Shown here: piece by piece, positions 5,804-21,568 of the stretch
How positions within the stretch are numbered: the stretch's first letter is position 1
Layout of the letters: every line of letters begins with the position of its first letter
Assembly: GCA_002773415.1 (NCBI GenBank)
Contig: PFBD01000020.1
Coordinates: 25,667 to 89,666, forward strand
Source of the DNA: Candidatus Harrisonbacteria bacterium CG10_big_fil_rev_8_21_14_0_10_49_15
GTDB taxonomy: Bacteria; Patescibacteriota; Minisyncoccia; UBA6257; 1-14-0-10-44-23
Reading direction: 5' to 3'
DNA: 64,000 nucleotides
Made by a program: the position numbers and the translations under genes
Notes under the pieces: model-generated
What the model saw: the letters and a program-made list of their open reading frames with translations, nothing else
Database searches by the model: none
Told to the model about the DNA's origin: nothing

Positions 5804-5853
5804 GCGTGTGCTTGGCCTTAGCCAGGGGCACGAGCGGCGAGACCCCGCCTTTC

Positions 5854-6360
5854 TTATCGGGCTTTGGCGCCGCGTTTGCCAAGCTCGGAGAAGAGGTGGT
5901 GACTTATCTGAGCCCGACGCTCCTCGTTGCCCTTGCCATCCCAGTTGTAGTTGGAGAGGGTGTGATTGACGGCCTGGATGACATGGCTGTCGTGCGAGAC
6001 GTCGCTGCTTCTGAGGGCGTCTTGCTCACAGACCCAGGCCAGGAAACGAGCAGCCTGGTCGACGAGCTGGCGAGGCGAGAGGAAGGAGCCTCTTTTTGCC
6101 CAGTTGTCGTTTTTCCGCTGACCTCCCCGCTGCCGGACAAGGTACCCGATGGCGGCCTTGTAATCGTGGAAGGTATCGTCGTCGCTTGGCCCGAAGTGTT
6201 CGGAAACGACCTCTGTGATGATCGTGTCCATCGGGTTCTGGTCACGACCACGGACGGCGTACTTATCCAGTGCTGCGCGAGCAGCGTCCTGAACCCGTTG
6301 CTCGTTGATGAGCGGCGGCGGCTTCTTTCTTCTTGCGCTCACTTGGTTGCCCCCTGTCAA
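5854..6360 (-). CDS. Hypothetical protein in a GC-rich islet. Start is TTG at 6360 or the GTG 15 nt downstream (SD agggggc)
   Basis: 168-aa ORF in a ~63% GC segment. It has its own TATAAT box (rc of 6406-6411) and a downstream terminator. The overlapping plus-strand ORF 5806..7347 is a read-through artefact fused to nfo. Confidence 0.5.
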   Translation of the reverse strand: MTGGNQVSARRKKPPPLINEQRVQDAARAALDKYAVRGRDQNPMDTIITEVVSEHFGPSDDDTFHDYKAAIGYLVRQRGGQRKNDNWAKRGSFLSPRQLVDQAARFLAWVCEQDALRSSDVSHDSHVIQAVNHTLSNYNWDGKGNEERRAQISHHLFSELGKRGAKAR

Positions 6361-6427
6361 AAGACAGGAGTGTGCGCAGGTGAAGCAACCCAGTGCTACT
6401 TCTATCTATATTATAACATTTTTTTAT

Positions 6428-6459
6428 TTGAAAATCAAGGGTGGGACGTGTGGTACAAT
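6428..6459 (+). promoter_or_regulatory. nfo promoter: extended -10 (TGtgGTACAAT) with an upstream TTGAAA. Leader only ~6 nt
   Basis: Sequence ttgaaaatcaagggtgggacgtgtggtacaatggcgagATG. Confidence 0.5.
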
Positions 6460-6465
6460 GGCGAG

Positions 6466-7347
6466 ATGGCAAAGTTAGGCAAGCCACTTCTAGGCGCGCA
6501 TGTTTCTGTGGCCGGCGGATATGAAAACGGCATTACTGCGGGTGAAGCCATGGGCGCGGAAGTTATTCAGATCTTTGGCGCGAGCCCGCGGCAGTGGGCT
6601 GTTAAAGTTTCGAGTGAAACGAAGGTCGAGGCATTTAAAAAACAGTTTGCGACTAGTTCGCTGCAGGCGCTGTATTTACACGGCGCGTATTTGGTGAATT
6701 TAGGAGCGGCTAATCCGGAGGCGTGGCAAAAATCAGTAGCGAATCTGATCGCGCACTATCAGATCGCTACTCATCTGGGCGCGGATGGACTGATCTTTCA
6801 TGTGGGCAGCCCAAACGGAGACGATAAGCAGCAGGCTATGGACAGGGCTATTAAGGGTATGAAAGAGGTGCTGAAAAAAGTAACCCGTTCGACAAGCTCA
6901 GGGCAAGCCGGCAAAAGTTGGCTGATTATGGAGAACTCGGCGAGCCATAAAAAGCTGGGGGCGACGCCGGAAGAGATGCGGTATATGTGGGATGGCGTTG
7001 GCTCGGATCGGGTTAAGGTTTGTATTGATACGGCGCATGCGTTTGAGGCGGGGCTTATCATGGAGTACGCGCCGGCCAAGATCAAAGTATTTTTAGACGA
7101 GTGGGACGCGGCAGTTGGTTTGAAAGAAATTCCGGTGCTTCACGTCAATGATTCTAAGACCGCAGCCGGGTCTAATAATGATCGGCATGAGAATATCGGC
7201 GAGGGTTTGATTGGTAAGCAGGGGTTTGCGCATTTGGCTCGGGAGAAGAGGATGGCGGGCAAGCACTGGATATTAGAGGTGCCGGGATTTGACGGGAAGG
7301 GGCCGGATAAACGGAATTTGGATATTTTAAAGCGCTGTGTATACTAA
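6466..7347 (+). CDS. nfo: Endonuclease IV (Nfo, AP endonuclease family 2) with an in-frame family-B mini-repeat
   Basis: MAKLGKPLLGAHVSVAGGY..; the HVGSPNG and NDSKT..GSNNDRHENIGEG motifs. The inserted TRSTSSGQAG peptide is encoded by the repeat at 6884-6908. Confidence 0.85.
   Translation: MAKLGKPLLGAHVSVAGGYENGITAGEAMGAEVIQIFGASPRQWAVKVSSETKVEAFKKQFATSSLQALYLHGAYLVNLGAANPEAWQKSVANLIAHYQIATHLGADGLIFHVGSPNGDDKQQAMDRAIKGMKEVLKKVTRSTSSGQAGKSWLIMENSASHKKLGATPEEMRYMWDGVGSDRVKVCIDTAHAFEAGLIMEYAPAKIKVFLDEWDAAVGLKEIPVLHVNDSKTAAGSNNDRHENIGEGLIGKQGFAHLAREKRMAGKHWILEVPGFDGKGPDKRNLDILKRCVY
6884..6908. repeat. Family-B mini-repeat (cccgttcgacaagctcagggcaagc) in-frame in nfo
   Basis: See 2530 and 28129. 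Confidence 0.7.
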
Positions 7348-8197
7348 AAGCATGAATAAAAGGATTCTCTGGGTAGTGCTCATTATTATAGTAATCCTGG
7401 TTGTGGTCGGCTTTGTGTTGCCGGCTTCAGAGCGGGTGCCGGTTGAAGACCCGGCTGACGAAGAACCGCTTCTGCCGAGCGTGTCGGCAAATGGGAATAT
7501 GAAGGTGTGGTGGCCGTGGCCGGGAGTGGAGGTGATGCGCCCGCTACGCATCTTGGGCGAGGCGCGGGTATTTGAGAACGCGCTTAGTTATCGTGTTAGG
7601 AATAATTCCGGCGAAATAATTGCCGAGGGATTCACGACTGCGTCCGCGCCGGATATTGGTCAGTTTGGTCCGTTTGTCGTGAGTGTGCCATATGAGGCTC
7701 AGGCGGAACTCGCCGGTACGGTGGAGGTTTTCGCGCACAGTGCTAAAGACGGTTCAGTAATTGAGCTGGTGAGCATTCCGGTTAAACTGGCGCAAGTTGA
7801 GTCAACCGCCGTGGCCGTCTATTTTGGTAATGCAATTAGCGACCCGGAAGTGCAGGCATGTGAGCGAACTTATCCGTCCGTTCGGATAGTGCCGAAGACG
7901 ACCGCGGTGGCGCGTGAGGCGCTGGAGCAGTTGCTCTCCGGACCGACTGAAGTTGAGCAGGAGCTTGGATTTTTTACAAGTATTCAGGACACGAAAGCCG
8001 TGAAAATTCAATCCTTGACCATTAAGGACGGAGTTGCTACGGTTGATTTAAGTGCCGCCTTAAGCGCAAGTGCGGGCGGTAGTTGCCGAGTAGTCGCTGT
8101 CCGTTCACAGATCATAAATACCTTGCTACAATTTGAGACTGTAGACGAAGTAGTTATATCGGTTGAAGGCGAGACAGATGAAGTCTTACAGCCGTGA
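7337..8197 (+). CDS. GerMN-domain (spore-germination-like) lipoprotein/secreted protein
   Basis: N-terminal TM segment. The C-terminal region AREALEQLLSGPTEVEQELGFFTSI..VATVDLS is typical of the GerMN domain. Confidence 0.6.
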   Translation: MYTKSMNKRILWVVLIIIVILVVVGFVLPASERVPVEDPADEEPLLPSVSANGNMKVWWPWPGVEVMRPLRILGEARVFENALSYRVRNNSGEIIAEGFTTASAPDIGQFGPFVVSVPYEAQAELAGTVEVFAHSAKDGSVIELVSIPVKLAQVESTAVAVYFGNAISDPEVQACERTYPSVRIVPKTTAVAREALEQLLSGPTEVEQELGFFTSIQDTKAVKIQSLTIKDGVATVDLSAALSASAGGSCRVVAVRSQIINTLLQFETVDEVVISVEGETDEVLQP

Positions 8198-8273
8198 TAG
8201 TATTCGCTAATAATGCGAATAAACTCAAGTAATAATGCTAATGGTCGCTACATAAAGAAGAGTACGTAGAAGT

Positions 8274-9125
8274 TTGGTAATTATTAATTCATTAATTAAA
8301 ACTATTATGTTAAAGAATATTATTTTGAGTGTTGCCGCGCTTGCGATTGCTTTGCCGGTCGGTGCGCAGACGCCGCCGCCACTCCGGGTGCGAACTGAAG
8401 CGCAGGCAGAGATGCGCGCTGAGACACGTACAGATGTTCGTCCGGTTCAGATGCACGCGGGAGAAGAGGTGCGCGTACAGGTGCGCATGGAGGGCGAGGG
8501 CGAGCTTCGCGGTGAAGCTATGCGAGAGCACATGATGGAAGAGCGGGCTATGATTATGGAGAATCGTGAGGCTCGTCGGATGGAGCGCACTGAGTTGCGG
8601 GCCGAGCACCGTACAGAGTTACGAGCGCGTGTGGGGGATTTGCAAGACGAGAAGCGAGCAGAGCGCGTTTTGAAGATCGATGAGCGGTTGGCTGCAATTA
8701 ATGAGCGGATGACGACTCATTTTTCTGAGAAACTATCTAAGCTACAGGATCTAACCCTTAGGATTGCCGCTCGGGCAGATGCGGCCGAAGAGAATGGTGC
8801 TGATGTTTCGACGGTGCGCGAGGCCTTGGCAAACATTGATAAGCAGGTTGATATCGCCCAGGAAGCTGTTACTGCCCAAGTTGGCATGACCTACGAGATT
8901 ACCTTTGAGAGCAGTGACACTCTGCGGGCGGATATTCAGGCGGTTAAGGAGGAGTTGCGCTTAGAGTTGGTGGCTGTGAAAGAAGCTGTGCAGGCCGCGC
9001 AAAAGACGGTCCGAGACGCGCTGGTTGCTTTGGCCGCGGTTGTTGATGCTCGAGACGATGTAGAGGTAGAGGTGGAAGCTGAAGCAGAGGTTGAGGTCGA
9101 AGAAGAAGTGGAGTCGGAATCATAA
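8274..9125 (+). CDS. Secreted coiled-coil protein with a Glu/Val-rich acidic tail
   Basis: Signal peptide, Arg/Glu-rich heptad-like region, C-terminal EVEVEAEAEVEVEEEVESES. Confidence 0.6.
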   Translation: MVIINSLIKTIMLKNIILSVAALAIALPVGAQTPPPLRVRTEAQAEMRAETRTDVRPVQMHAGEEVRVQVRMEGEGELRGEAMREHMMEERAMIMENREARRMERTELRAEHRTELRARVGDLQDEKRAERVLKIDERLAAINERMTTHFSEKLSKLQDLTLRIAARADAAEENGADVSTVREALANIDKQVDIAQEAVTAQVGMTYEITFESSDTLRADIQAVKEELRLELVAVKEAVQAAQKTVRDALVALAAVVDARDDVEVEVEAEAEVEVEEEVESES

Positions 9126-9452: not shown

Positions 9453-10494
9453 GTATAATGGAATAATGGAGAAGAAAGAAACTAGAAACTCGAATATAGA
9501 AACTGGAATAGCTGCCCGGGCTGCGATTTTGATTCTATTTTCTAGTTTTTATTTTCTAGTTTCTGCGCCTTTGGCGCATGCGCAGGAGTATGGTTTTTTG
9601 GAGCGGAATATTTGGTTTTCACAGGAGCTGCTTTTTGCCGGTGAGACAGTGCGGATCTACACAGTTGTTTTTAATGGTAGCGAAGAGGATGTTACCGGTA
9701 CTGTTGAGTTTTATGATCAGGCGGAGAAGCTCGGCGAAGCCAAGTTTTCTTTGGCAAAAGGAGAGCAGTTGCGCGATGTTTGGATAGATTGGTTGGCGAA
9801 AGAGGGCGAGCATGCAATTACCGCTCGCATAAATGGTGCTAGCTCAGCAATTTTGACTAAGGTCGTGGATGGCGATCGGGATGGTGATAAGATTGGCGAT
9901 AGGGAAGATCTGGATAATGATAATGATGGTATCTCTGATGCTCAAGAAAAAAAAGACGGCACAGATCCTTTTAAGGCGGATACAGATGGTGATGGTCTTA
10001 ACGACTTGGAAGATCCGGCACCACTTGTTTTTAATCTAAAAGAGGAAAAACAGGAACAAGTACAAAAAGAAGAAAAGCCGACTTTAAAAGATACGGCGGA
10101 GGTGGCAACTGCGAATGTTCTTGGGGTAATGGAGGGTTTTCGGGAGCGATACGAACAGGGGCTAGAAGATAAAAAACAGGAACTGCGGGGCGAGCTCGAT
10201 GCGTATAAAGAGGAGGATGCCTTGGCTCGGCAGGAGCAGTCAAATAGTCGCAATACTTCCGGTCAACGTCTTAATGAGGCGGCCGGAGAGGAGTTTGTGC
10301 GTTTGACTGACAGTGAAGATGGCCTGCCAAAGTTGTCCGGGGCGAGGATTGTTAAATTTTTGTATTACGGAGTTGTCTCTGTTGGATTGTTTATTTTTGA
10401 ACACAAGCCTGTGTTCTACGCGGTGCTGGGGTTGATATTCCTGAAGTTCATCTTTATTATCATCGGCAAATTTCGCAAGAAACGCTACGGGTAA
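9451..10494 (+). CDS. Secreted/membrane protein with thrombospondin-type-3-like Ca-binding Asp repeats and C-terminal TM helices
   Basis: Signal peptide, then DGDRDGDKIGDREDLDNDNDGISD..DTDGDGLNDLEDP, then C-terminal hydrophobic segments. Confidence 0.65.
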   Translation: MYNGIMEKKETRNSNIETGIAARAAILILFSSFYFLVSAPLAHAQEYGFLERNIWFSQELLFAGETVRIYTVVFNGSEEDVTGTVEFYDQAEKLGEAKFSLAKGEQLRDVWIDWLAKEGEHAITARINGASSAILTKVVDGDRDGDKIGDREDLDNDNDGISDAQEKKDGTDPFKADTDGDGLNDLEDPAPLVFNLKEEKQEQVQKEEKPTLKDTAEVATANVLGVMEGFRERYEQGLEDKKQELRGELDAYKEEDALARQEQSNSRNTSGQRLNEAAGEEFVRLTDSEDGLPKLSGARIVKFLYYGVVSVGLFIFEHKPVFYAVLGLIFLKFIFIIIGKFRKKRYG

Positions 10495-10560: not shown

Positions 10561-11643
10561 ATGAACAGAGGGTTTTGGAGTGAATTAAAGAAGCCAATAA
10601 TGGTGCTGGCGCCGATGGCGAATGTCACGGATGCGGCTTTTCGGCGCATTATTGCCAAGTACGGTAAACCGGATGTTTTTTGGACAGAGTTTGTTTCGGT
10701 AGAGGGATTGTTGTCGGTAGGTCGGGAGAAGTTGCTGATAGATTTTTGGCATACAAAAGAGGAGAAACCGATTGTGGCGCAGATTTTCGGTGGGAAACCG
10801 GAGCAGTTTTACGAAGTGGCCAAGCTTTGCGTGGAGTTGGGTTTTGATGGGATTGATATCAATATGGGTTGCCCGGATAAGGGTGTAGAGAAAAGCGGCG
10901 GCGGCGCGGCTTTAATAAAAGATCCGGCGCGTGCGCAAGAGATAATTTTGGCGATTAAGGGCGGCGTGAGAGACGTGGGTAGTGCCATCCCTGTCTCGGT
11001 TAAAACTCGGCTGGGCTATAACAAAAATGAGCTGGAAACTTGGGTACAGGCGCTTTTAAAAGCTGAGCCGGCGGTGATAACCATGCACTTGCGCACGCGC
11101 AAAGAGATGAGCAAGGTTCCGGCGCACTGGGATCAGATGCGAACGATGGTGGAACTCGTTACACGTTATACGAATCGTGATACACGGCCATTGCTTTTTG
11201 GGAATGGTGATGTGATGAGCGTTGAGGAGGCGCGGATGAAAGTTGCGGAAACTGGCGCAGATGGAGTGATGCTTGGCAGGGCTATTTTTGGTAACCCCTG
11301 GTTATTCGCGAAAGATCCTTACTCCAATGTTCTTGAGAACATTGGAGTAAGTGAAAGGCTGCAAGTGATGGTAGAGCACACCAAGCTTTTTGAGGAGTTG
11401 TATGGATTGAATTCCTCCTTTTCTAAAGGAGGTGGCCGAAGGCCGGAGGATTTAAATCCCTCCCGGTTGCGCCGGACTCCCTTTACAAAAGGGAGAATTA
11501 AGCCGTTTGATCTTATGAAAAAGCACTATAAGGCGTATTGTAACGGGTTCGATGGCGCGAAAGAGTTGCGAGTGAAGTTAATGGAAGCGGAAACCGCGGC
11601 GGAGGTAGAGGAGTTGGTGAGCTTGTTTTTGAAAAAGAGCTAG
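10561..11643 (+). CDS. dus: tRNA-dihydrouridine synthase (Dus family) carrying an in-frame family-A element
   Basis: MVLAPMANVTDAAFRRI.., NMGCP, and the catalytic-region hallmarks. Insert NSSFSKGGGRRPEDLNPSRLRRTPFTKGRIKPF. Confidence 0.85.
   Translation: MNRGFWSELKKPIMVLAPMANVTDAAFRRIIAKYGKPDVFWTEFVSVEGLLSVGREKLLIDFWHTKEEKPIVAQIFGGKPEQFYEVAKLCVELGFDGIDINMGCPDKGVEKSGGGAALIKDPARAQEIILAIKGGVRDVGSAIPVSVKTRLGYNKNELETWVQALLKAEPAVITMHLRTRKEMSKVPAHWDQMRTMVELVTRYTNRDTRPLLFGNGDVMSVEEARMKVAETGADGVMLGRAIFGNPWLFAKDPYSNVLENIGVSERLQVMVEHTKLFEELYGLNSSFSKGGGRRPEDLNPSRLRRTPFTKGRIKPFDLMKKHYKAYCNGFDGAKELRVKLMEAETAAEVEELVSLFLKKS
11411..11498. repeat. Family-A element copy 3 (inside dus), module order B-C-A
   Basis: attcctccttttctaaaggaggtggccgaaggccggaggatttaaatccctcccggttgcgccggactccctttacaaaagggagaat. 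Confidence 0.8.
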
Positions 11644-12221: not shown

Positions 12222-15200
12222 GAACTAAAAAGATTAAATCTGGCTCAGCGGCTGGCGGTGGAAACCATTGAAGGGCCGGTGATGGTCATTGCCGGGCCAG
12301 GTACGGGTAAGACGCAGATCTTGACGCTGAGAATTGCGAATATTTTGGCTACGACGGACACTGAGCCGGAGAATATCTTGGCCATCACCTTTACGGAGAG
12401 CGGTGTTGCGGCGATGCGCAAGCGTTTGGCGAGCATTATCGGAGCGCCGGCGTATCGTGTATGCATCACGACGTTTCACGCGTTTTGTAATTCGATAATC
12501 CAGGAGCACGCGGAGAGCTTTCCGCGAGTAATCGGCAGTACGGCGATGACTGAGGTGGATCAAGTTCTAGTTCTTCAGTCACTAGTCACTAGTCTTAAGT
12601 TAAAGGCCTTAAGGCCTTTTGGCAACCCTTTCCATTATCTGAAGGATATTTTAAATGCGATAAACGAGATGAAGAGGGAAAATGTCAGCCCGGAGAAGTT
12701 TGCCAAGATTGTGGCCGAGGAAGAGGCAGTTTATGAGCGACTTGATGAGAGCGAGACGCATCACCAAAAAGGCGCGCATCAAGGGAAAAAGAAGTTGGAG
12801 TATGTAAAAAAAGAAAAGCAGATAGCGAAGAGCAAAGAGTTGAGTGCTGTATATTCTCAATATCAAGACGAACTAGGCAAGCAAAAGCGCTATGACTACA
12901 CGGACATGATCATGGAGGTGGTGCGGGCGCTTGAGCAAGACAAGGATCTTTTATATGAGTTGCAGGAGCAGTATCAGTATGTGTTGGTGGATGAGCATCA
13001 GGATACGAATAACGCGCAGAACAAGTTGTTGGAGTTACTGCTAAGCTTTCACGATAATCCAAATTTGTTTGTGGTGGGGGATGCGAAGCAGGCTATTTTT
13101 CGTTTTCAGGGGGCGAGTTTGGAAAACTTTTTGTATTTTAAGAATTTGTATCCCGAGGCAAAGCTTATTGAGCTGGAGCATAACTATCGAAGTACTCAGA
13201 CTATTTTGGATTCGGCGCATGGTGTTCTACCAAGTCCAAAGCCGCTTCAAGCTCAGGCTCAGCATCCAAAGAAGCAGATTCTTTTGGCAGAGCTGACTAG
13301 CCCAGACGCGGAGCTGTATTGTGTCGCAAAACATATTCAAGAGCGAATTTCCGCTGGAGCAGCTAGAGAGGAAATAGCTGTTTTGTATCGGGACAACAAA
13401 GATGTTTTGGGGGTAGCTAAGATGCTGGAGCGGTTGGAGGTGCCGTTTGTGATTGAGTCTAACCAGAATTTGTTTGAAGATAAAGAAGTAAAAAAACTGC
13501 TTGGTTTGTTATACGCGACTCACCATCTTGGTAATCAGGAGTTGTTGACCGCCCTGTTGCATACGGATTTTTTGAACATTGATCCGCTGGACGCGTACAA
13601 GCTCGTTATTTTTGTAACCAGAAAAAAGAATGCGGAAAAAGGAAGGAGGTTGGGATTGTATGATGTGCTGCGGTCAGAAAAACTACTGAGCGCCGCGGGG
13701 GTGGGAGATCCAAAACCGTTTTTGGAGCTGTACGCGAAGTTGGCAGGCTGGCGAAAGTTGAGCGAGTACTCGAACGTGGCCGAGGTGTTTGAAGTAGTTG
13801 TGCGCGAGAGCGGCTTGTTGGCACATATTCTGGCGCTACCAAATGCGGTCGAGGCGCTGGCGAAGATCAATACTTTGTTTGACGAGGCAAAGAAGTTGCT
13901 GGAGGCTCACCCGCGCTACTCTTTGGCGCAGTTTGTGGAGTACTTGGATATGCTGCGCGAGCACGATCTACTAGTGAAAAACACCCGGCCCGGACGAGTG
14001 AGCCACGCGGTGCGGCTAATGACCGCGCACGGCTCTAAAGGTCAGGAGTTTGAGTATGTGTATATCGTCAATGCTTTTGACGGGCACTGGGGGAATAAGC
14101 GGCGGATAGAGAAGTTGAAGCTGCCAGTTGGTGTTTATACTCTAGGAGGATCCCTCCCGGCTACGCCGGACTCCCTTTACAAAATGGAGAATAATTCCTC
14201 CTTTACTAAAGGAGGTGGCCGTAGGCCGGAGGATTTTTTCAAGGATGACAAAGATGACAAAAACGCCGACGAACGAAATCTTTTTTATGTGGCGTTGACG
14301 CGGGCCAAGCGGGAGATTGTTATTTCGTACGCGCAGGCGCGCGCGGATGGTAAAGAGCAGTTGCCGAGTCAGTTTGTGGCAGAGATACCAGAGGGGTTGC
14401 TGGAAAAAATGGATGTGAGCGGTTATGAACGAGAGCTTAGCGAGCGACAGGAAATCGTTTGGACAGGACCCTCCTTCGCTAAAGCTACGGAAGGGCAAGG
14501 TAGGGTGGCGGAAAAAGAATTTGTGCGCGAATTATTTTTGGAGCGGGGACTAGCCGTTACGGCACTCAATAATTATCTGACCTGCCCGTGGCAGTGGTTT
14601 TATTCAAATCTGTTGCGTGTGCCCGAAGCGCAAAATAAGCATCTGTTGTATGGCACGGCGATTCACGCGGCGTTAAAAGATTTTCATGATTGGCGTCAGG
14701 CAGATAATAAAAAGGGGAAGGCCGAGGAGTTTTTGATTGGGGCTTTTGAAAATGCATTAACGCGACTCCCCTTTTCGGAGCGTGATTTAGCAGAGACTTT
14801 GGAAAAGGGTAAGCTGGCTTTAGCCGGATATTATGAGGAGTATAAAAAAACATGGAACTCTCCCCTGCTTTCAGAATTTGCCGTGGCCGGCGTGCATGTG
14901 CCGGTTAGTGGTGTAAAGGATGTTAAGGAGTTGCGTTTGACCGGAAAACTAGACGCGGTGGAGGTGTTAGCGAACGGGCGAGATGTAAGCGTGATAGATT
15001 ACAAAACCGGCAAGCCCAAGAGCCGGAACGAGCTTATGGGTAAGACAAAGAGTGCGGACGGAAACTACTACCGGCAGTTGGTTTTTTACAAATTATTGTT
15101 GGATAATTATCCAAGCGCCGGGAAGAAGAAGTATGAAATGGTCTCCGGCGTGATTGACTTCATAGAACCAAATGACCGCGGGAAGTACATTCGCGAGGAG

Positions 15201-15867: not shown

Positions 15868-15877
15868 ACGTACTAAC

Positions 15878-15909
15878 CTATTTCACAATTTGGTTAAATT
15901 GTGAAATAG
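15878..15909. promoter_or_regulatory. Perfect-armed 32-bp palindrome ctatttcacaatt-tggtta-aattgtgaaatag (putative operator), followed by a TATACT box
   Basis: 13-bp arms. A second copy lies downstream of the same regulator gene and a variant lies at 20602. Confidence 0.6.
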
Positions 15910-15923
15910 GGTATACTGGGATC

Positions 15924-16202
15924 ATGAACAATAAGGAGTGGGTGAGAGTGTTTAAGGCGTTGGCGAATCCGAATCGTTTGATGATCATTCGGATGCTAGC
16001 CGATGGTCGCGAGCGGCACGTGACTACCATCTCCTCGGAGATCCATGTGACTATGTCGGGAACATCACGACATCTACGGCAACTTACGAATTTAGACATT
16101 CTGCTTGAGTCGGGGAAGGCGAATCATGTTTTTTATTCGCTCAATCCGAGTATGCTGCCGGAAACGAAAAAGGCGGTTGAGCTGTTTTTAAAGTCGCACT
16201 AG
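15924..16202 (+). CDS. ArsR/SmtB-family winged-HTH transcriptional regulator
   Basis: ALANPNRLMIIRMLADGRERHVTTISSEIHVTMSGTSRHLRQL. Confidence 0.75.
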   Translation: MNNKEWVRVFKALANPNRLMIIRMLADGRERHVTTISSEIHVTMSGTSRHLRQLTNLDILLESGKANHVFYSLNPSMLPETKKAVELFLKSH

Positions 16203-16221
16203 TAATTTATTCTAGTTAAAC

Positions 16222-16253
16222 CTATTTCACAATTTAACCAAATTGTGAAATAG
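16222..16253. promoter_or_regulatory. Second copy (inverted orientation) of the 32-bp palindrome, downstream of the ArsR gene and upstream of the kinase gene
   Basis: ctatttcacaatttaaccaaattgtgaaatag. Confidence 0.6.
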
Positions 16254-16277
16254 GTTATGGTTTTTTTATGTTGTTTT

Positions 16278-16319
16278 TAACGGCTCACGTGGATATATTT
16301 CTCCACGTGAGCCGTTAAA
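16278..16319. repeat. Perfect 15-bp-arm inverted repeat (aacggctcacgtgga..tccacgtgagccgtt)
   Basis: Read directly. Function unknown; it could be a terminator, an insulator or a binding site. Confidence 0.5.
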
Positions 16320-16373
16320 TTTGAGCCGTTGCTAACTTGATTTTTCTCGAATTGGAACGCATGATAGAACAAT

Positions 16374-16931
16374 ATGAAACTAGTTGTATTATTTGGACCG
16401 CCGGCCGTGGGGAAGATGACGGTGGCGCAGGAGCTGGCCAAGATAACGGATATTAAGGTTTTTCATAATCACATGACCATCGACTTGCTGACCAAGTTTT
16501 TTGAGTTTGGCAGTGAGCCGTTTCGAAAACTGTCACGTACTTTTCGTCGTGGAGTGATTGAGGAGGCGGCCAAAAGCAAGGTGAGTATAGCTTTTTCTGT
16601 AGCCTGGGATTTCAGCCAGTCTAGCGATACTGAAGAGATGAGGCATATTAAGGGTTTGGTAGAGAGTAATGGTGGGAGTGTGTATTTCGTGGAGTTAGAA
16701 GCGCCGCTTGAGGTGCGGCTGGAGCGAAACACGACGCCAAACAGATTGATGCATAAAGATAAGGCGAACGTGGCGGCGACAGAGAAAAATATTAGAGAGT
16801 GGCACAAGGTGTATCAGTTGAATAGTGCGCTAGGGGAGTTTCCGTTTCCGGAGCACTACCTGCGTCTAAGTACGGAGCATATGAGCGCGGCCGAGGCGGC
16901 GGTTGAGATTAAAAAAAGATTTGGTTTTTAA
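16374..16931 (+). CDS. P-loop NTPase / small-molecule kinase-like protein (AAA_33-like)
   Basis: Walker A GPPAVGKMT at the N-terminus. Size is 185 aa. Confidence 0.6.
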   Translation: MKLVVLFGPPAVGKMTVAQELAKITDIKVFHNHMTIDLLTKFFEFGSEPFRKLSRTFRRGVIEEAAKSKVSIAFSVAWDFSQSSDTEEMRHIKGLVESNGGSVYFVELEAPLEVRLERNTTPNRLMHKDKANVAATEKNIREWHKVYQLNSALGEFPFPEHYLRLSTEHMSAAEAAVEIKKRFGF

Positions 16932-16939
16932 AATGTACA

Positions 16940-16972
16940 GCGCCCGCCGAGAGAAGGTCTCTCGACGGGCGC
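16940..16972. terminator. Hairpin terminator (gcgcccg-ccgagagaaggtctctcg-acgggcgc)
   Basis: Nested GC stem. Confidence 0.5.
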
Positions 16973-16991
16973 CTGATTTGCGGTCGGCGCG

Positions 16992-17228
16992 TTAGGCGCC
17001 GGTGATTGCGGTCTTCAGGAACTCTTGAAGACCGCCGAAGGTGGTGACGCGCTCGGGTACCGGAACGCGTATGGCGCAGGGTACGCAGATGAGAGCCCAT
17101 CCCCTGGTGCCACGTCGAGCCCAGACCTTCGCCTCACAGCCCTTGTGGTGGCCGAGGGCTGTGTTCGGTCCTGGCGAGATCAAGGCCGAGGTTGGGGTTG
17201 GGTTGTGGAAGACGAGAATTTCTGGCAT
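16992..17228 (-). CDS. Doubtful Cys-containing small ORF in a GC-rich 280-bp islet. Its ATG is supplied by the IS terminal inverted repeat
   Basis: Peptide ..GHHKGCEAKVWARRGTRGWALICVPCAIR... The start codon lies inside the IS TIR (17224-17253), so the ORF is either created by the insertion or spurious. The region also contains strong hairpins. Confidence 0.2.
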   Translation of the reverse strand: MPEILVFHNPTPTSALISPGPNTALGHHKGCEAKVWARRGTRGWALICVPCAIRVPVPERVTTFGGLQEFLKTAITGA

Positions 17229-18303
17229 AAGGTGGAAAAACGGTGGGCTGTTTTAGCCCTTTTTTGATTTTCGAAGCGCCGTGCTGGAGTTAAGCATAAT
17301 GAGGTGTAATATCTTTTCTTGTTGTTGCTTGGAAGCGCCCCGATGTACTCGTATCAGATCACGCACATGCGAAAAATGACCTTCTAAAGAGTTGGTGTTC
17401 TTGGGAATGGTTGGATTAGATTCGTAGGTGAAGAGATAGGGAAAGAGCTCGCGGAGCGAGCGCGCGGCTTTTCTGAGCTCCTTGTGCGTGTACGACCAGA
17501 AGCCGTCCGGATGAGTAGTGGTTTCTGAAAGAAACGAGCCATACTTTTTCCAGTATAAAGAGATGCGAAGTTGCAGTGTTTTTCGGTCAGTGGTGTGCAG
17601 GCTTTTGCCTAGAGCCAGCAGTACCTCGCCAGCCTCGGTCTTGGGGTTTCGGGTGGTGCCGCGGATGATCAACCGCTCCATGTGCACTAGGCACATCTGA
17701 AAGGGAATCTTGAAAAACGCTGATCTGATGCCGCTAAAGCCGTCTCCGGTGACCGAGAGGATGGTGTAGCCCAAGGACTCCAAAGCACCCTTGCCCTGGG
17801 CATACGCCCAGGTGGTTTCTGTGTCCGTGCAAGTCCACCACAGGTCTTCGTGAGTCTGCCCATCTCGAAACACTAAAATACACCAGCTGTCTCCGGTGGT
17901 GCGCTTGCCGAAATATAAGGCGTCCACGAGCAGATGGACAGGTCTGGGGTGGTGGATTTTCTCCGGTATGAGGTATTGAGCCATCAGCTCTCTGATGGTC
18001 TGCGGATCATGCCCGGAGGTGGTGGCTAATTGACGGACTGTCTGTTCGCCAAAGACGTACGCATACCAGAGATTTTTGCTTTCTCTGGTATGAGCGCGTT
18101 TGGAGTTTCGGAATTGCTGTTTGCAGTGGTGACAACGATATGTCTGAATGCTCCGAGCAATACCATCTTTCTTAGTTTTTAAAGAGCCACGCTTCGGACA
18201 TTTTTTTGTTTTTTTTAATCATATGAGTTAAAAAATACGGCTAAAGCCGCATGAATGCAAGGGAAAGTGGGCGAAACAGCCCACCGTTTTTCCACCTTAT
18301 GCC
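17224..18303 (-). mobile_element. IS1595-family-like insertion sequence (~1080 bp) with 30-bp perfect terminal inverted repeats and an 8-bp target-site duplication (gaatttct)
   Basis: Left end ggcataaggtggaaaaacggtgggctgttt (17224-17253) is the reverse complement of 18274-18303. The flanking direct repeat gaatttct sits at 17216-17223 and 18304-18311. Confidence 0.8.
17253..18222 (-). CDS. IS transposase (DDE, IS1595-like with an N-terminal zinc-ribbon). The ORF is continuous for ~315 codons, but the only ATG (MIKKNKK) is in the +1 frame across an A7 run, so it needs a -1 slip or a homopolymer correction
   Basis: In-frame upstream extension KKTKKCPKRGSLKTKKDGIARSIQTYRCHHCKQQF... of the track ORF 17253..17984, then MAQYLIPEK... 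The ATG at 18220-18222 reads MIKKNKK and stops soon after in its own frame. The sequence cannot distinguish programmed frameshifting from a homopolymer-length error. Confidence 0.6.
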
Positions 18304-18481
18304 GAATTTCTCCTTCTCTTGTGATTTCGAGCTCCCTGATCTTTTCCGTCGTGCGAATGGTATCGGTCACGAGCCCTTCCTTCCTTCAAGACACAGACCT
18401 CCCTGTTGGGTCCTACTCTATTGGTAACATGGTATCGCTTTTTGGGTCAAGGATTTTTTTGGCAGTGATATACTGAGGGGG

Positions 18482-19663
18482 ATGCGGATAGTTTTGCACG
18501 TGGATATGGACGCTTTTTTTGCGGCGGTGGAGGAGCGGGATAAGCTGCGTCTTCGTGGTCGGCCAATTGTAGTTGGCTCTGATCCAAAGGCCGGCAAAGG
18601 CAGAGGTGTGGTGTCTACAGCAAACTATGCGGCGCGCAAGTATGGAATTCATTCGGCGTTGCCGATTACGAAAGCTTGGCAGTTATCACAGCAAGCCAAA
18701 AAAGCCGGGAAACCGGAGGTGGTTTTTATGGGCGTGGATATGGCCAAATACGCGAGAGTATCTGCGAATATCATGCAATATTTAGAGTCGCTAGTAACAA
18801 GTGGCGAGTGGCAAGGTGGAGCATTTGAGCAGGCTAGCGTGGATGAGGCCTACTTAGAATTTCCAATTTCCAATTTCCAATTATCAAACAATGATGAAAT
18901 GTGGCAATGGGCTGCAGAAAAGGCGGGGGAGATTAAGGCGCATATTAAACATGAGTTTGGGTTGACGGCGTCTATTGGCGTGGGGCCGAATAAGCTGATT
19001 GCAAAGATTGCTAGCGATCGCCAAAAACCGGACGGGTTGACGGTCGTGCCGGAAGAAGCTGTGCAGGATTTTCTAGATCCTCTACCGGTGCGAGTTATCC
19101 CGGGGATTGGACCAAAGGCTGAGGCGCAGTTGATGAGTTTGGGAGTTAAGAGAGTTGGGGAGTTACGAGGAATGCCAAAGGAAAAATTGCTGGCTGAATT
19201 TGGGAAGCATGGTGAGGGGATGTATCGCCAGGCGCGCGGTATCAGCGATAGCGTGGTCGCCCCGGGCGGGCCGGCTAAGTCTATTGGTCTGCACCGAACG
19301 TTTGGAAAAGATACCCTGGACAGTGTGGTGCTTATGAGCGAGCTCAAGGATATGGCGGCGGAGATTGGGGCCGATGTGGCGCGCGACGGCCGGCTGTACC
19401 GAACAGTTGTGCTGACAGTACGATTTTCAAATTTTAAGACGCAGACGCGGTCGCATACTTTAGAGGCGCCGGATAAGGATGTGAAAACCTTGGAGACTGA
19501 AGGGCTAAAGCTATTGATGCCGTTTTTGGATAGTCGAGAGAATCCGGGGAGGCAGAAGATACGGTTGATTGGATTGAGGGTGGAGAAATTTGTCGCGCAC
19601 GGCAATGAAGAAAAAGGAAGCATGAAAAAGGAAAAAGGAAATGCTCAGCAAGGGCTTTTTTGA
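18482..19663 (+). CDS. dinB: DNA polymerase IV (DinB, Y-family) with an in-frame insertion of an intergenic-type repeat (ISNFQLSNNDEMWQW)
   Basis: MRIVLHVDMDAFFAAVEERD.., SVDEAYLE. The insert DNA ttccaatttccaattatcaaacaatgatgaaatgtggcaatgg matches the intergenic repeats at 23772 and 46985. Confidence 0.85.
   Translation: MRIVLHVDMDAFFAAVEERDKLRLRGRPIVVGSDPKAGKGRGVVSTANYAARKYGIHSALPITKAWQLSQQAKKAGKPEVVFMGVDMAKYARVSANIMQYLESLVTSGEWQGGAFEQASVDEAYLEFPISNFQLSNNDEMWQWAAEKAGEIKAHIKHEFGLTASIGVGPNKLIAKIASDRQKPDGLTVVPEEAVQDFLDPLPVRVIPGIGPKAEAQLMSLGVKRVGELRGMPKEKLLAEFGKHGEGMYRQARGISDSVVAPGGPAKSIGLHRTFGKDTLDSVVLMSELKDMAAEIGADVARDGRLYRTVVLTVRFSNFKTQTRSHTLEAPDKDVKTLETEGLKLLMPFLDSRENPGRQKIRLIGLRVEKFVAHGNEEKGSMKKEKGNAQQGLF
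18848..18900. repeat. In-frame copy of the ttYcaatt/caaacaatgaa intergenic repeat (family C) inside dinB
   Basis: Compare 2183-2205, 23772-23860, 46985-47115 and 62836-62912. Confidence 0.6.
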
Positions 19664-19673
19664 AATGCGAAAC

Positions 19674-19707
19674 CCCCTACCGGAAGACGGGTCTTCTGGT
19701 AGGGGGT
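19674..19707. terminator. Bidirectional terminator hairpin (ccccctaccggaagac..gtcttctggtaggggg)
   Basis: 14-bp stem with one mismatch, immediately after dinB. Confidence 0.6.
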
Positions 19708-19732
19708 GCGATTGGTTGCGCTTGGCCGACAG

Positions 19733-20497
19733 TTAGTCGGCGCGCAGGATCTGCAGTTGCTCGCTCAGCGTCATCAGGAGGAAGAAGCTGGCGCTGACCT
19801 GTTCCAGGAACAGCTGGCCGAGCCCGTGGCCACGCAGTTCGGGCTGGGGATCTTCTGCGAGCCATGCTCCTCCCGGGGTGAGGACGTGTGTCTGCACGGC
19901 CTTGATTCGCTCGGGTGGAGCGACGAACTCTACCCGGTGGAAGTTGTTGCCATAGTGGTCGCGGTGGTTTTCCGCGGGTGGGCGGAGCCAGGCGGTGACA
20001 GCATTGCTCAGTTCGCCGCGGAAGGTCTTCTCGTCGTCGCGGATGTAGAAGTGGGCGGAGCGGCACTTCGCGTTCCTGGCCAGGAGCCAGAGCGTGTGGC
20101 CGGCCCTTAACTCTGCGGGCGGCGTCAGTGTCCTGGCTTGGGGGCCATGTTCAGATTTTGCCTGCTTGAACTGGGCGAGATAGTCCAGTAGCGCCAGCAT
20201 GGTGCCGCCGGCGAACTCGTTACTGAACTCGTCCGCGGCCTTGGTCTCGATATTGGCATCGAGGTGAGTGACGCTGTGACCGTCGGTCTCCAGTAGCGCG
20301 CGGATGACGCGACGGATTGGGCGCCAGCCGGGGCTTCGCGCGCAAAGCCGTATGATCTCTTCGCGAGCATCCTGGTTGTTGCCGTGGTCGGCGATGATCA
20401 GGACGGACCGCCGAGTGAGCCAGTCGTCAGACCAGCCTTTGCTGAGGTGATCTCCGAATTGTTCAACGGTGCGCCGCTTTTCCGAGTCTTGCATGTT
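19733..20497 (-). CDS. Hypothetical protein in a GC-rich islet. Contains an ..LIIADHGNN.. motif reminiscent of alkaline-phosphatase-superfamily metal sites (not assigned)
   Basis: Strong SD aaggaggactcaacATG at 20497. The track ORF starts further upstream at 20602, inside the palindrome. GC ~64%. Confidence 0.5.
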   Translation of the reverse strand, partial: NMQDSEKRRTVEQFGDHLSKGWSDDWLTRRSVLIIADHGNNQDAREEIIRLCARSPGWRPIRRVIRALLETDGHSVTHLDANIETKAADEFSNEFAGGTMLALLDYLAQFKQAKSEHGPQARTLTPPAELRAGHTLWLLARNAKCRSAHFYIRDDEKTFRGELSNAVTAWLRPPAENHRDHYGNNFHRVEFVAPPERIKAVQTHVLTPGGAWLAEDPQPELRGHGLGQLFLEQVSASFFLLMTLSEQLQILRAD

Positions 20498-20601
20498 GAG
20501 TCCTCCTTTCAAAGGACAGCGCCCCTTGCAGGGCTTGTTGTGCGGGGCAATGAGCCCCGGGCTGTCTGTAGCATGCCATGGGCTTTTGGCGTGTGTCAAC
20601 A

Positions 20602-20633
20602 CTATTTCGCAATTTCGCGAAATTGCGAAATAG
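20602..20633. promoter_or_regulatory. Variant 32-bp perfect palindrome ctatttcgcaatt-tcgcga-aattgcgaaatag next to a TTGACA (-35) for the minus-strand GC-rich gene
   Basis: Same outer half-site ctatttc.caatt as the ArsR-flanking palindromes at 15878 and 16222. Confidence 0.55.
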
Positions 20634-20713
20634 GGATTTCGATATTGAGTGCTGGGTGTGGTAGGATAACTATGCTTCTTAACTCATAATTCTTAGTTCA
20701 TATCTTTTTTTTC

Positions 20714-21568
20714 ATGTCCAAATACTACAACCCACCGAAGAAAACTACGTATCAACCAGGCAGTGCAACTCCTTATCGGTTGAGTCGGTCTAAGATAGAC
20801 ATGTTTATGAACTGTGCACGCTGTTTTTATATGGATCAGCGTTTGGGGGTGGCGCAGCCGCCGGGGTACCCTTTTAGTTTGAATAGTGCCGTAGACGGTT
20901 TGTTGAAAAAAGAGTTTGATGTGCACCGCGCTAATGGAACGGCGCATCCGATGATGTCCGCTCATGGATTGGATGCCGTCCCCTTTCCGCATGAGAAGAT
21001 GAATAGGTGGCGCGAGGCGGACTTTGGTCGCGGCGGCATTCGAGCGATGCACGCGCCGACGAACTTTGATGTTGGTGGCGCGGTGGATGATGTTTGGGTT
21101 AATCCGGCTGGCGAGTTAATAATTGTGGATTACAAGGCGACGGCTAAACTGGGTGAGGTGAGTTTGGACGCGGATTGGCAGATAGGATACAAGCGGCAGA
21201 TGGAGGTGTATCAGTGGTTGTTTGAGCAGAACGACTTTTCGGTCTCAAAGACGGGTTACTTTGTATATGTGAATGGGAAGATGGACGCGGCGGCTTTTGA
21301 TGGGAAGCTGGAGTTTGACGTGAAGCTTATTCCGTATGAGGGTGATGGCAGCTGGATTGAGCCGACACTGATGCAGATCAAGCAGACGTTAGAGGCAGAG
21401 GAGATCCCGCCGGCGAATAAGGAGTGTGATTATTGTTTGTATAGAAACTGGGCGATTAAGGTGGTGCAACCCCTACTTCGCCAAGGCTCCGCAGGGCAAG
21501 CTTCAAAAAAAGAGGTTTCTTTGCCGAAAAAGCCGCTGGTAGAGCCGGAACAGGGGAGCTTACTTTAG
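20714..21568 (+). CDS. PD-(D/E)XK nuclease-family protein (Cas4/RecB-like, standalone) with N- and C-terminal Cys pairs
   Basis: Core GELIIVDYKAT..QMEVYQWL. Cysteines NCARC near the N-terminus and ECDYCLYRNW near the C-terminus. Confidence 0.65.
   Translation: MSKYYNPPKKTTYQPGSATPYRLSRSKIDMFMNCARCFYMDQRLGVAQPPGYPFSLNSAVDGLLKKEFDVHRANGTAHPMMSAHGLDAVPFPHEKMNRWREADFGRGGIRAMHAPTNFDVGGAVDDVWVNPAGELIIVDYKATAKLGEVSLDADWQIGYKRQMEVYQWLFEQNDFSVSKTGYFVYVNGKMDAAAFDGKLEFDVKLIPYEGDGSWIEPTLMQIKQTLEAEEIPPANKECDYCLYRNWAIKVVQPLLRQGSAGQASKKEVSLPKKPLVEPEQGSLL

Follow-up and report, generated by a model that had tools for sequence, protein, structure and literature searches.

Matching palindromes on both sides of a small ArsR-fold regulator gene: putative operators in uncultivated groundwater bacteria

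SmtB, CzrA and CadC are ArsR/SmtB autorepressors with 12-2-12 inverted-repeat operators, and the same family has non-metal members, including HlyU, BigR/SqrR, NolR, PagR and SdpR. LacI (O1/O2/O3), GalR (OE/OI) and DeoR are repressors that employ auxiliary operators and looping. In IS1, the 91-aa HTH protein InsA binds the repeat on either side and is a repressor of its own promoter, and a REPtron consists of a RAYT gene flanked by inverted REP palindromes. The regulator described here, ArsR1 of a Candidatus Harrisonbacteria (CPR) genome, is encoded between two matching palindromes. It resembles the ArsR/SmtB autorepressors in its fold, its small size and a palindromic putative operator that overlaps the promoter of the regulator itself and whose half-sites are spaced by roughly one turn of the helix, so that autoregulation would be expected; unlike them, ArsR1 is without any cysteine or metal site, and its putative operator is a 13-6-13 element of 32-34 bp. 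A further difference from the known ArsR/SmtB systems is a second, near-identical putative operator conserved just past the stop codon of the regulator. With LacI, GalR and DeoR the locus shares a set of two or more identical sites separated by a few hundred bp, of which one occupies the promoter and another lies within or after a gene, and cooperative repression or a roadblock would be the expected consequence. Here, however, the putative operators enclose the repressor's own gene, the distances from site to site (322-402 bp across loci) show no helical phasing (Rayleigh p 0.65), and we know of no ArsR tetramerisation module.

Within the window, by which we mean the whole 64-kb stretch of DNA that was analysed, the pattern CTATTTCNCAATT-N6-AATTGNGAAATAG has exactly three matches (15878-15909, 16222-16253 and 20602-20633), and no match occurred in any of 100 shuffled windows, which excludes a chance origin of the palindromes. 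As the preliminary description had stated, the first two copies, each of 32 bp, lie on both sides of the ArsR-like reading frame (arsR1, 15924-16202, plus strand), and the second is inverted relative to the first, being its exact reverse complement (TGGTTA against TAACCA at the centre). When the flanking bases are included, the arms reach 15874-15913 and 16219-16256. The third copy, CTATTTCGCAATTTCGCGAAATTGCGAAATAG, is also a perfect 32-bp palindrome, and departs from the other two at a symmetric pair of positions (A>G / T>C, with G at position 9) and in its centre, TCGCGA. All copies, if transcribed, are predicted to fold stably (-16 to -34 kcal/mol, z -3.8 to -10). The operator-like upstream copy begins 11 nt past the stop codon of a NUDIX gene and ends 2 nt ahead of a putative -10 box, TATACT (15912-15917, plus strand), which is located 6 nt ahead of the arsR1 ATG and, as far as can be read from the sequence, implies a leaderless or near-leaderless arsR1 mRNA. 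The downstream copy starts 17 nt past the arsR1 stop codon and contains an AT-rich 17-bp stem, followed 5 nt on by a T7 run (16262-16268), and was classed as terminator-like. A separate strong hairpin (16276-16319, plus strand), with 18-nt arms that contain CACGTG, lies between this cassette and the next gene; it is terminator-like and outside the repeat family.

Profile matches and the modelled fold place ArsR1 in the ArsR/SmtB family. The 92-aa protein, whose start codon is backed by an alignment with orthologues beginning MKRW, scores 33.4 bits against Pfam HTH_5 (cut-off 22), 33.6 bits against HTH_20 (cut-off 27) and 62.9 bits against NCBIfam HTH_metalloreg NF033788 (cut-off 55). The SdpR-type autorepressor subfamily was considered and rejected, with 45.2 bits against NF033789 (cut-off 100). 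The AF2 model (pLDDT 92.3) has the element order a1-a2-a3-a4(recognition)-b1-b2(wing)-a5, and Foldseek matched it to HlyU (TM 0.81), then SqrR, NolR, CzrA and SmtB, with TM values of 0.7-0.83 across these proteins and CadC; HlyU is the best match in both structure and sequence and the closest solved structure. ArsR1 contains no cysteine, and thus not the Cys pair of BigR, HlyU and SqrR, and it has neither an alpha3 CXC motif nor an alpha5 Asp/His/Glu metal site; the short a5 (ETKKAVELFLKSH) has no D-x-H...H-x-x-E pattern, and the family alignment has no conserved His, Asp or Cys outside the HTH; hence no known ArsR sensing chemistry applies to ArsR1.

To assess how far the layout is maintained in relatives, we compared 38 non-redundant homologous loci (47-63% identity and below). 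Flanking sites are present on both sides in 27 of these; among the remainder, five run into contig ends, in three the upstream site is 157-215 bp distant, and three are without one copy. Counted singly, the equivalent upstream site occurs in 33 loci and the equivalent downstream site in 31. The ArsR1 family was found only in CPR-type MAGs and in groundwater or sediment metagenome contigs, and the layout is present around relatives of ArsR1 and of a second regulator in the window, ArsR2, in dozens of uncultivated groundwater bacteria. The sites have the core CAATT-N6-AATTG in common, in which ATT-N6-AAT is invariant and C occupies position 8 in 64 of 65 sites, and this invariant core is paralleled by an invariant recognition helix (GTSRHL) in the family alignment. 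The outer arms are lineage-specific and matched inside each pair, with 76% identity within pairs and 44% between loci, and paralogues that share a genome (L013 and L040; L033) each have their own site variant. Site position 9 varies together with wing residues 67 and 72, and position 11 with residue 45, located at the recognition-helix N-cap, both without correction for phylogeny. The conserved sandwich, the shared core and the co-varying arms thus bear out the proposal that the palindromes belong with the winged-helix genes, and the recurrence of the layout around relatives makes it most likely that each regulator binds its own pair, and not that the pairs are chance repeats or mere terminators. 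Genome-wide abundance of the palindromes, which the preliminary description had named as a contrary outcome, was not observed: with three copies in the window, a search of one genome for each of 185,579 species recovered the exact pattern at three loci, of which just one belongs to a related genome. There are 2-7 copies per locus, and most of the 10-kb loci, as well as the window, have few or no additional sites.

The position of the sites relative to promoters and genes agrees with the autoregulation that had been proposed for arsR1, the upstream copy bordering or overlapping a putative -10 box. A conserved palindromic site by such a box in 33 of the 38 loci bears indirectly on operator binding by a homodimer at its own promoter. 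A strict TAYAHT box follows 16 of the 33 upstream sites, mostly 2-18 nt past the site (15 within 18 nt, and one, in L019, at 52 nt), in many cases with a TG extension, and the spacing between -10 box and ATG is mostly 6-15 nt. The distance from the stop codon to the downstream copy is 0-71 nt overall and 1-17 nt for the window, L001 and L003. In at least ten loci the next ATG lies 2-13 nt beyond the downstream site; in others (the gene after arsR2, and loci L025, L038 and L027) the next gene has its own -10 box beyond it. As an observation against the operator reading, the downstream genes have no common function across loci.

From the observed anatomy, fold, conserved layout, co-variation and positions we infer binding, the sign of the regulation and a roadblock or cooperative action, and we regard it as reasonably probable that each palindrome is an operator, bound by the ArsR-fold protein whose gene the two copies enclose. 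The binding form of ArsR1 is probably a symmetric dimer, whose recognition helices would read the two CAATT half-sites, with centres 11 bp apart, and whose beta-wings would reach the outer arms of the palindrome. The upstream copy appears to cover the -35 and spacer region, directly before TATACT, and because of this position the bound protein would shut its own promoter (negative autoregulation). The downstream copy may add another high-affinity site at a distance of about 350 bp. If the next gene begins 2-13 nt on, this intercistronic copy could act as a roadblock or as a co-repressing operator for it; if that gene has a -10 box of its own beyond the site, the copy could serve as the operator of that promoter. 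In the window its surroundings are also terminator-like. A few further targets may come from additional copies like the third site. Against this, a single ArsR dimer does not, to our knowledge, require perfect symmetry over 32-46 bp, no case of tetramerisation by ArsR dimers is known, and the distances between the copies lack helical phasing.

The preliminary description had also placed the downstream neighbour of arsR1, a P-loop kinase-like gene (AAA_33-like; 16374-16931, plus strand), under its control. This claim is weakened because 118 nt, which include the T-run and the second strong hairpin, separate the downstream copy from the kinase ATG, and because in a sister genome (L001) the kinase orthologue, 72% identical, is found upstream of the cassette instead of downstream. 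The third site (20602-20633) occupies the divergent spacer between a foreign, GC-rich ORFan of 254 aa (19733-20497, minus strand; ribosome-binding site AAGGAGG) and a PD-(D/E)XK / Cas4-like nuclease gene (20714-21568, plus strand). The GC content of the ORFan by codon position is 0.67/0.44/0.78, compared to about 0.55/0.37/0.56 in host genes, and its database matches consist only of itself, in Ca. Harrisonbacteria CG10. The third site does sit beside a candidate -35 of the ORFan, with TTGACA (20599-20594, minus strand) 2 nt from the palindrome, but the matching -10, CATGCT after an 18-nt spacer, is weak; the ORFan is a possible, unproven target. The nuclease gene may be the target instead, given an extended -10-like box, TGgTAGGAT (20659-20667), 25 nt past the site. 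The proposed link between the regulator and the foreign islet gene is not established, as the equivalent third site of the sister genome contradicts a promoter-operator role there. It lies in the same dinB-nuclease interval, 6 nt past the dinB stop and with convergent genes around it, and the adjacent GC-rich gene is non-homologous to the ORFan and on the opposite side of the site (directly right, compared with left in the window). Since it is on the other side and between convergent genes, this site cannot be the promoter operator of its GC-rich gene. The third site probably predates both islets. The absence of a promoter at the sister site is a further observation against the operator reading, and the same genome carries an identical 28-bp site inside its fpg gene.

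The palindromes might, alternatively, be mainly nucleic-acid structures, such as terminators working in both directions, insulators, or hairpins for mRNA stabilisation or processing, which would shield the small gene from its neighbours without being specifically bound by the protein it encodes; this we consider unlikely. Their stable predicted folding, the T-run and terminator-like call at the window's downstream copy, the position of the sister third site just past dinB between convergent genes and the intercistronic location of sites in many loci would all suit such a role. So would arms that in some loci exceed 32 bp and differences between upstream and downstream copies that are often compensatory (15 cases); these differences, with arms of up to 23 nt (L023, L020), hint that self-complementarity is selected for or is driven by mutation. 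A hairpin needs no conserved sequence, yet the half-site consensus is maintained over 65 sites. Furthermore, at 42 arm positions neither copy of a pair is self-complementary, and at these hybrid sites the half-site sequence is kept while self-complementarity is lost. Like Rho-independent terminators, the elements have a stable stem, which in the window is followed downstream by a T-run; unlike them, they have an AT-rich stem, a conserved sequence and no T-run in 29 of 31 downstream copies, so that the criterion of a G+C-rich stem with a U-tract rejects them as intrinsic terminators. The window's upstream copy has no T-run either, and by lying before the -10 box it would be outside the transcript of that promoter. 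Of the mismatches at downstream sites, 9 are G·U, 10 are A·C and 41 are of other kinds; the sense strand is not enriched in wobble pairs. Judged from sequence, the rarity of T-runs and the absence of a G·U bias argue against a purely terminator or RNA-hairpin role, and the T-run survey indicates that the palindromes are not the generic terminators that the preliminary description had allowed for. No Rfam 15 covariance model scored above its gathering threshold (best 22.5 bits, threshold 100), and the tight link to one protein family would be left unexplained by structure.

It is similarly improbable that the protein binds the sites as a HlyU-like activator or anti-silencer, or in a purely architectural role, and is not an autorepressor. 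This possibility draws on HlyU being the top structural and sequence match, on the window's third site lying just upstream of a minus-strand TTGACA, and on loci in which the upstream site ends 18 nt ahead of the -10 box (L001, L003, L049) or has no -10 box near it (L019, L024, L028, L041). The 18-nt distance in L001 and L003 puts the site centre near -45, which would also suit an activator. In many other loci, however, the site ends 2-6 nt ahead of the -10 box or 6-12 nt ahead of the ATG, where RNA polymerase would be occluded, and most characterised ArsR/SmtB members are repressors.

More doubtful still is that palindrome, gene and palindrome form a mobile or recombining cassette, with the 13-6-13 sites as recombination sites or terminal inverted repeats. 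Such a cassette would be lox/dif-, pdif-, REPtron- or IS1/InsA-like, recombination or gene conversion would keep its sites identical, and these would be hot spots for the capture of foreign genes. In a related proposal, to which we likewise assign little probability, the winged-helix gene and its two palindromes are a portable REPtron- or pdif-like module, in which a regulator replaces the transposase and the sites are hot spots of recombination or insertion; if true, this would explain the changed order of cassette and kinase between the two Harrisonbacteria, the differing neighbours in almost every lineage, the GC-rich foreign genes on either side of the third site and the 28 bp within fpg. 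These same observations favour a cassette, as do the concerted evolution of site pairs, the inverted orientation seen in the window and for 9 of 26 pairs, and the 13-6-13 geometry, reminiscent of lox/FRT/dif sites, with an asymmetric centre in the window, L001, L014, L027 and L045. Most loci, however, have palindromic centres (CGCGCG, CCATGG) that confer no directionality, and equal numbers of direct and inverted pairs are the expectation for interchangeable palindromes. The inspected loci and their flanks have no recombinase or transposase with the cassettes, the IS256 fragment at 17253-17984 lies about 1 kb off and has no relation to them, no target-site duplication was seen at the window cassette, copy number is low, and no homologues were found in viral contigs. 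REPtrons, IS1 InsA and pdif modules do resemble the locus in placing a small gene between matching palindromic or inverted repeats, with further copies elsewhere, but the gene here encodes a conserved ArsR-fold regulator, no HUH, DDE or tyrosine recombinase is seen in the inspected loci, and there are 2-7 copies per locus against tens to hundreds. REP elements proper were rejected on the flanked gene, which is ArsR-fold and not RAYT, and on three copies in 64 kb without high-copy dispersal, and integron attC sites or gene cassettes on the lack of RYYYAAC...GTTRRRY boxes at the window site ends and of an integrase in the region.

The operator reading extends to the second ArsR-like gene (arsR2, 31649-31927, plus strand), which, as described before, is bracketed by a palindrome different from that of arsR1, with a common 30 bp at 31606-31635 and 31942-31971. 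ArsR2 is a 92-aa winged-helix protein that scores 26.7 bits against HTH_5 (cut-off 22) and 41.1 bits against NF033788, below the cut-off of 55; the sequence comparison (hhalign probability 97%, no BLASTP similarity) makes it a distant homologue of ArsR1, and its family repeats the sandwich layout with a related 32-bp site. The full upstream palindrome (TTCATTCTCTATTTCTG/CAGAAATAGAGAATGAA; 31604-31637) has 17-nt arms and lies 11 nt before the ATG, the downstream one (31937-31976) has 20-nt arms, and both are conserved in L051. The next gene, which starts at 32000 and not at 32001 as previously noted, encodes a trxB-like pyridine-nucleotide-disulphide oxidoreductase (32000-33013, plus strand; Pyr_redox_2, E 1e-34). 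The control of this gene by the second regulator, also proposed earlier, gains weight, for the downstream palindrome ends 8 nt ahead of its TATACT box (31985-31990) and the arrangement is kept in a 74%-identical relative; the trxB-like gene is a likely target of the putative downstream operator of arsR2.

The pattern CTATTTCNCAATT-N6-AATTGNGAAATAG has exactly three matches in the window (15878-15909, 16222-16253 and 20602-20633), and shuffling the window gave zero matches in any shuffle. The first two lie on either side of arsR1, the open reading frame of an ArsR-like regulator (15924-16202, plus strand), and the downstream copy is the exact reverse complement of the upstream copy, with the same arms and a 6-bp centre that differs accordingly (TGGTTA versus TAACCA); counted with their flanks, the arms of these two copies reach up to 17-18 nt. 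The third copy is a perfect palindrome of 32 bp with the centre TCGCGA, and differs from the other two by a symmetric A>G / T>C exchange at position 9 from the centre. A second regulator gene, arsR2 (31649-31927, plus strand), stands between a palindrome composed of TTCATTCTCTATTTCTG and CAGAAATAGAGAATGAA (31604-31637) and a 40-bp version of it downstream (31937-31976). Pattern matching and reading of the sequence bear out the positions and features reported in the preliminary description for both palindrome pairs and for the third site.

ArsR1 is 92 aa long and passes the curated cut-offs of Pfam HTH_5, Pfam HTH_20 and NCBIfam HTH_metalloreg, and its top sequence match in the PDB is HlyU (5e-6). 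In its AlphaFold model (pLDDT 92) the elements follow the canonical order a1-a2-a3-a4-wing-a5, and the model superposes on HlyU, SqrR, NolR, CzrA, SmtB and CadC with TM 0.7-0.83. By sequence and fold, ArsR1 is a member of the ArsR/SmtB family. Its sequence contains neither a cysteine nor the alpha5 metal-ligand pattern, and therefore no known ArsR/SmtB sensing chemistry applies. The family alignment shows a near-invariant recognition helix (G/A-T-S-R/K-H-L) and a near-invariant wing (G-H-V-F/Y-Y). ArsR2 is also ArsR-like (HTH_5, 26.7 bits); BLASTP detects no similarity between ArsR2 and ArsR1, and the two families match when compared profile to profile (hhalign 97%, E 2e-11).

Homologues of ArsR1 were taken together with their flanks from the sister MAG Ca. 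Harrisonbacteria nzgw427 (locus L001), which is syntenic with the window from the AddA-like helicase gene through the RRM and FAD-oxidase genes, and from metagenome contigs. In the first four loci the regulator is sandwiched in every case (4/4) by a palindrome that is specific to the lineage (TTACTTTACAATTTAACCGAATTGTAAAGT in L001, CACTTAACAATTCAATTGAATTGTTAAGT in L003 and CTATCATACAATTATCGATAATTGTATGATAG in L005). Both flanking sites are present in 27 of the 38 non-redundant ArsR1-family loci; the upstream site is 157-215 bp off in three, one copy is missing in three, and in five a contig end is too near the gene for a decision. The centres of the upstream and downstream sites are 322-402 bp apart (median 350). 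Outer-arm identity is 76% between the two copies of a pair versus 44% across loci, and paralogues within one genome each have their own arm variant (L013 and L040, which share a contig, and the two in L033). Paired copies are direct in nine cases, inverted in nine and undecidable in eight, and therefore the inverted orientation found in the window is no family rule. Genome-scan matches in Clostridium and Methylophilus were set aside as chance: they are imperfect, AT-rich or lie within genes, and no ArsR gene is near them. At 4942-9008 of locus L033, seven sites of the wider superfamily are spread over about 4 kb that hold two ArsR1 paralogues, one ArsR2-family gene, ribF and an EamA transporter gene; a site is found at nearly every gene boundary, and hybrids between two types of arm also occur.

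The half-site consensus of 65 aligned ArsR1-family sites reads C-Y-A-Y-T-n-n-[A/C]-C-A-A-T-T-C-G-C towards the dyad, with ATT invariant at positions 4-6, C at position 8 in 64/65, T at position 12 in 50/65 and A at position 14 in 57/65. At the variable positions 9-14 the self-complementarity is near 0.9, and past position 17 it drops to background (about 0.3), indicating an element with defined ends, 32-34 bp long. A second set of sites, selected solely by their position beside a regulator gene, has an arm complementarity of 0.72 at positions 9-16, versus 0.43 +/- 0.02 in a control with arms paired across loci. Mutual information, which is confounded by phylogeny, couples position 9 of the site with residues 67 and 72 of the wing, and position 11 with residue 45 at the N-cap, where the recognition helix starts; as a signal of protein-DNA specificity pointing to the wing and the recognition-helix N-cap, this is only a hint.

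In our assessment each regulator likely binds the palindromes that flank it as its cognate sites, with the upstream copy mediating autoregulation, as the preliminary description had proposed. In the window, a TATACT box lies 2 nt past the end of the upstream copy and 6 nt before the arsR1 ATG, a placement that predicts a leaderless transcript and a site over the -35/spacer region. Of 33 loci with an upstream site, 16 have a strict TAYAHT box after it, mostly at a distance of 2-18 nt (52 nt in L019) and often preceded by TG, and looser TAnnnT boxes are found at most of the upstream sites without a strict one. The distance from the -10 box to the ATG is just 6-8 nt in the window (15912-15926) and in several other loci (L012, L017, L034, L039), which suggests that the regulator mRNAs of these loci are leaderless.

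Control of the neighbouring gene, also proposed previously, bears on the downstream copy. This copy begins 0-71 nt after the stop codon across the family, and 1-17 nt after it in the window, L001 and L003. In at least ten loci the ATG of the next gene follows 2-13 nt past the site, too near for a separate promoter, and the site is then intercistronic; a TATAAT-type box follows the downstream copy in L025, L027, L030 and L038, and at the junction of arsR2 with the trxB-like gene in the window. We tentatively propose that the downstream copy would be a second operator, serving as a roadblock, as the operator of the next gene's promoter or as a cooperative partner. A palindromic operator on the regulator's own promoter is standard in the ArsR/SmtB family and is predicted for ArsR1 likewise, whereas a second operator directly 3' of the stop codon is non-standard for ArsR-type autoregulation; this layout is conserved in the ArsR1 family. 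Binding, like the sign of regulation and the signal, is a prediction, and our confidence in the operator reading as a whole is moderate. Helical phasing of the two operators was sought as evidence of looping and not found. The genes 3' of the cassettes are varied, encoding a P-loop kinase, an MFS transporter, ComEC, a Zn-ribbon protein, RibF, FtsW, TraG-like and pilin-like proteins. A DNA-repair (SOS-like) regulon was considered, with dinB, a PD-(D/E)XK nuclease gene, fpg, nth, ruvA, rarA and comEC among the neighbours, and was dropped because FtsW, RibF, MFS, pilin and TraG-like genes are also neighbours and no consistent theme emerges.

The palindromes might instead act only as nucleic-acid structures, as terminators or RNA hairpins, which we regard as improbable. 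If transcribed, the sites would fold at -16 to -34 kcal/mol, and the downstream copy of arsR1 is followed by T7 and is terminator-like by prediction, but a T-run is found in just 2 of 31 downstream copies of the family. Sense-strand G·U pairs, sought as evidence of RNA-level selection, are not in excess at mismatched arm positions (9 G·U, 10 A·C, 41 other); an Rfam search with the palindromes returned no known RNA family. Some sites are asymmetric, of a hybrid type: at 42 arm positions neither copy of a pair is complementary, and therefore self-complementarity is not kept there. On the other side, there are 15 compensatory differences between upstream and downstream copies, and some arms are as long as 20-23 nt; hence some pressure or mutational process symmetrises the palindromes, beyond what the specificity of a single protein explains.

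Also improbable is a mobile or recombining cassette with the palindromes as recombinase sites or terminal repeats, which the 13-6-13 geometry and inverted copies resemble: neighbours change in nearly every locus, and the P-loop kinase-like gene (16374-16931, plus strand; 72% identical) is 3' of the cassette in the window and 5' of it in L001, but site centres are mostly palindromic, no recombinase or transposase adjoins the cassettes in the loci inspected, no target-site duplication is seen at the window cassette, copy number is low, and viral contigs hold no homologue, which also led us to reject a phage or mobile-element origin.

The predicted operators extend to the ArsR2 family. A 74%-identical relative (L051) keeps both palindromes and the trxB-like neighbour; a 43% relative (L053) has copies containing ACATTCTTAAGAATGT on both sides, differing by one compensatory pair; for a 38% relative from L033, the upstream site is accompanied by a partial downstream copy over the last codons of the gene; and two others (L054, L056) have the upstream site only. 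ArsR1-type and ArsR2-type sites have the 32-bp architecture and the outer arm CATTCTC in common, and the half-sites of L054 and L018 are identical at 13/16 positions. Judged by their sequence, the two types form a single putative operator superfamily that two distantly related families of proteins would recognise.

The third site adjoins a GC-rich minus-strand gene (19733-20497), a genuine coding sequence whose composition is foreign (GC3 0.78) and an ORFan, with no match in Pfam, NCBIfam or PADLOC and no homologue but itself. That single database match places the window in Candidatus Harrisonbacteria bacterium CG10, a CPR bacterium. A possible link between this gene and the first regulator had been suggested. 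In the window, a minus-strand TTGACA with a weak -10 lies 2 nt from the site, and the site is 25 nt 5' of the TGgTAGGAT box of the nuclease gene. The third site may control the GC-rich gene, the nuclease gene or neither. No paralogue able to fit the variant site was found in the window. L001 also has a third site (CTACTTAACAATTCTGACTAATTGTTAAGT, 9682-9713) in the same dinB-to-nuclease interval, 6 nt past the dinB stop and between convergent genes, and compared with the window it lies on the opposite side of a different GC-rich gene; homology of the two genes was looked for and not found. The most economical history has the site already present in an ancestral dinB/PD-(D/E)XK spacer, with foreign genes inserted beside it independently. 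A stretch of 28 bp identical to part of the third site of the window (ATTTCGCAATTTCGCGAAATTGCGAAAT) also occurs in frame within an fpg/nei gene of the sister genome (L006, contig JAHFLF010000001.1, 280-307), encoding the peptide TISQFREIAK with no indel relative to other Fpg proteins. A simple fpg remnant was rejected as the origin of the third site: tblastn around 20602-20633 gave no further Fpg similarity (E 0.1 or worse), and the outer bases of the two copies differ symmetrically.

CPR/Patescibacteria are uncultivated, and to our knowledge almost nothing is known of their transcription regulation. We found no paper with the motif CAATTCGCGCGAATTG or with the combination of CPR, ArsR and palindrome. 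As far as the literature searched shows, four features are undescribed: a predicted second operator conserved 3' of the stop codon, a 13-6-13 element with a defined length of 32 bp, arms that vary in concert and specifically for each pair, and the spread of the layout over two wHTH families of CPR bacteria. The window supplies two defined regulators, each with a predicted operator that can be put to the test, and the half-site consensus of the ArsR1 family, with lineage-specific arm variants from about 40 genomes, can be used for EMSA, DAP-seq and heterologous reporters. If real, the second operator would be a compact means for very small genomes to join autoregulation with control of the next gene, by roadblock or cooperatively. 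Arm variants particular to pairs suggest that the repressors and their operators are a mutually orthogonal family, a possible source of parts for synthetic biology.

Other repeats and variable segments are present in the window. Between the arsR1 cassette and the kinase gene, there is a separate hairpin (16276-16319; 18-nt arms TTTAACGGCTCACGTGGA and TCCACGTGAGCCGTTAAA) of about -35 kcal/mol in context, possibly a terminator or a site of another factor. The region from the kinase gene to dinB (16940-18400) is variable. In the window it has a GC-rich hairpin at 16939-16973 and, on the minus strand, a GC-rich ORF of 78 aa (16992-17228) and an IS256 Zn-variant transposase truncated at its N terminus (17253-17984; NF048019, 160 bits); in its place the sister genome has an MFS gene and a GC-rich MOSC gene. 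Long inverted repeats with 21-30-nt arms (40184-40254, 53532-53598 and 61436-61487) are unrelated in sequence to the arsR1 and arsR2 palindrome families. A perfect 34-bp palindrome (CTTACTCCAATGTTCT-TG-AGAACATTGGAGTAAG, 11318-11351), with one copy in the window, lies within a Dus-like ORF (10561-11643). A multi-hairpin repeat of about 85 bp, containing CCCTCCCGGCTAYGCCGGACTCCCTTT and AAAGGAGGTGGCCGNAGGCCGGAGGATTT, occurs three times (about 2600-2685, 11405-11500 and 14152-14237), twice in frame within coding regions, in the AddA-like helicase gene and, in a permuted form, in the Dus-like gene. The helicase copy encodes the peptide NNSSFTKGGGRRPEDFF, which the L001 orthologue does not have, and the repeat looks like a MITE-like intragenic insertion.
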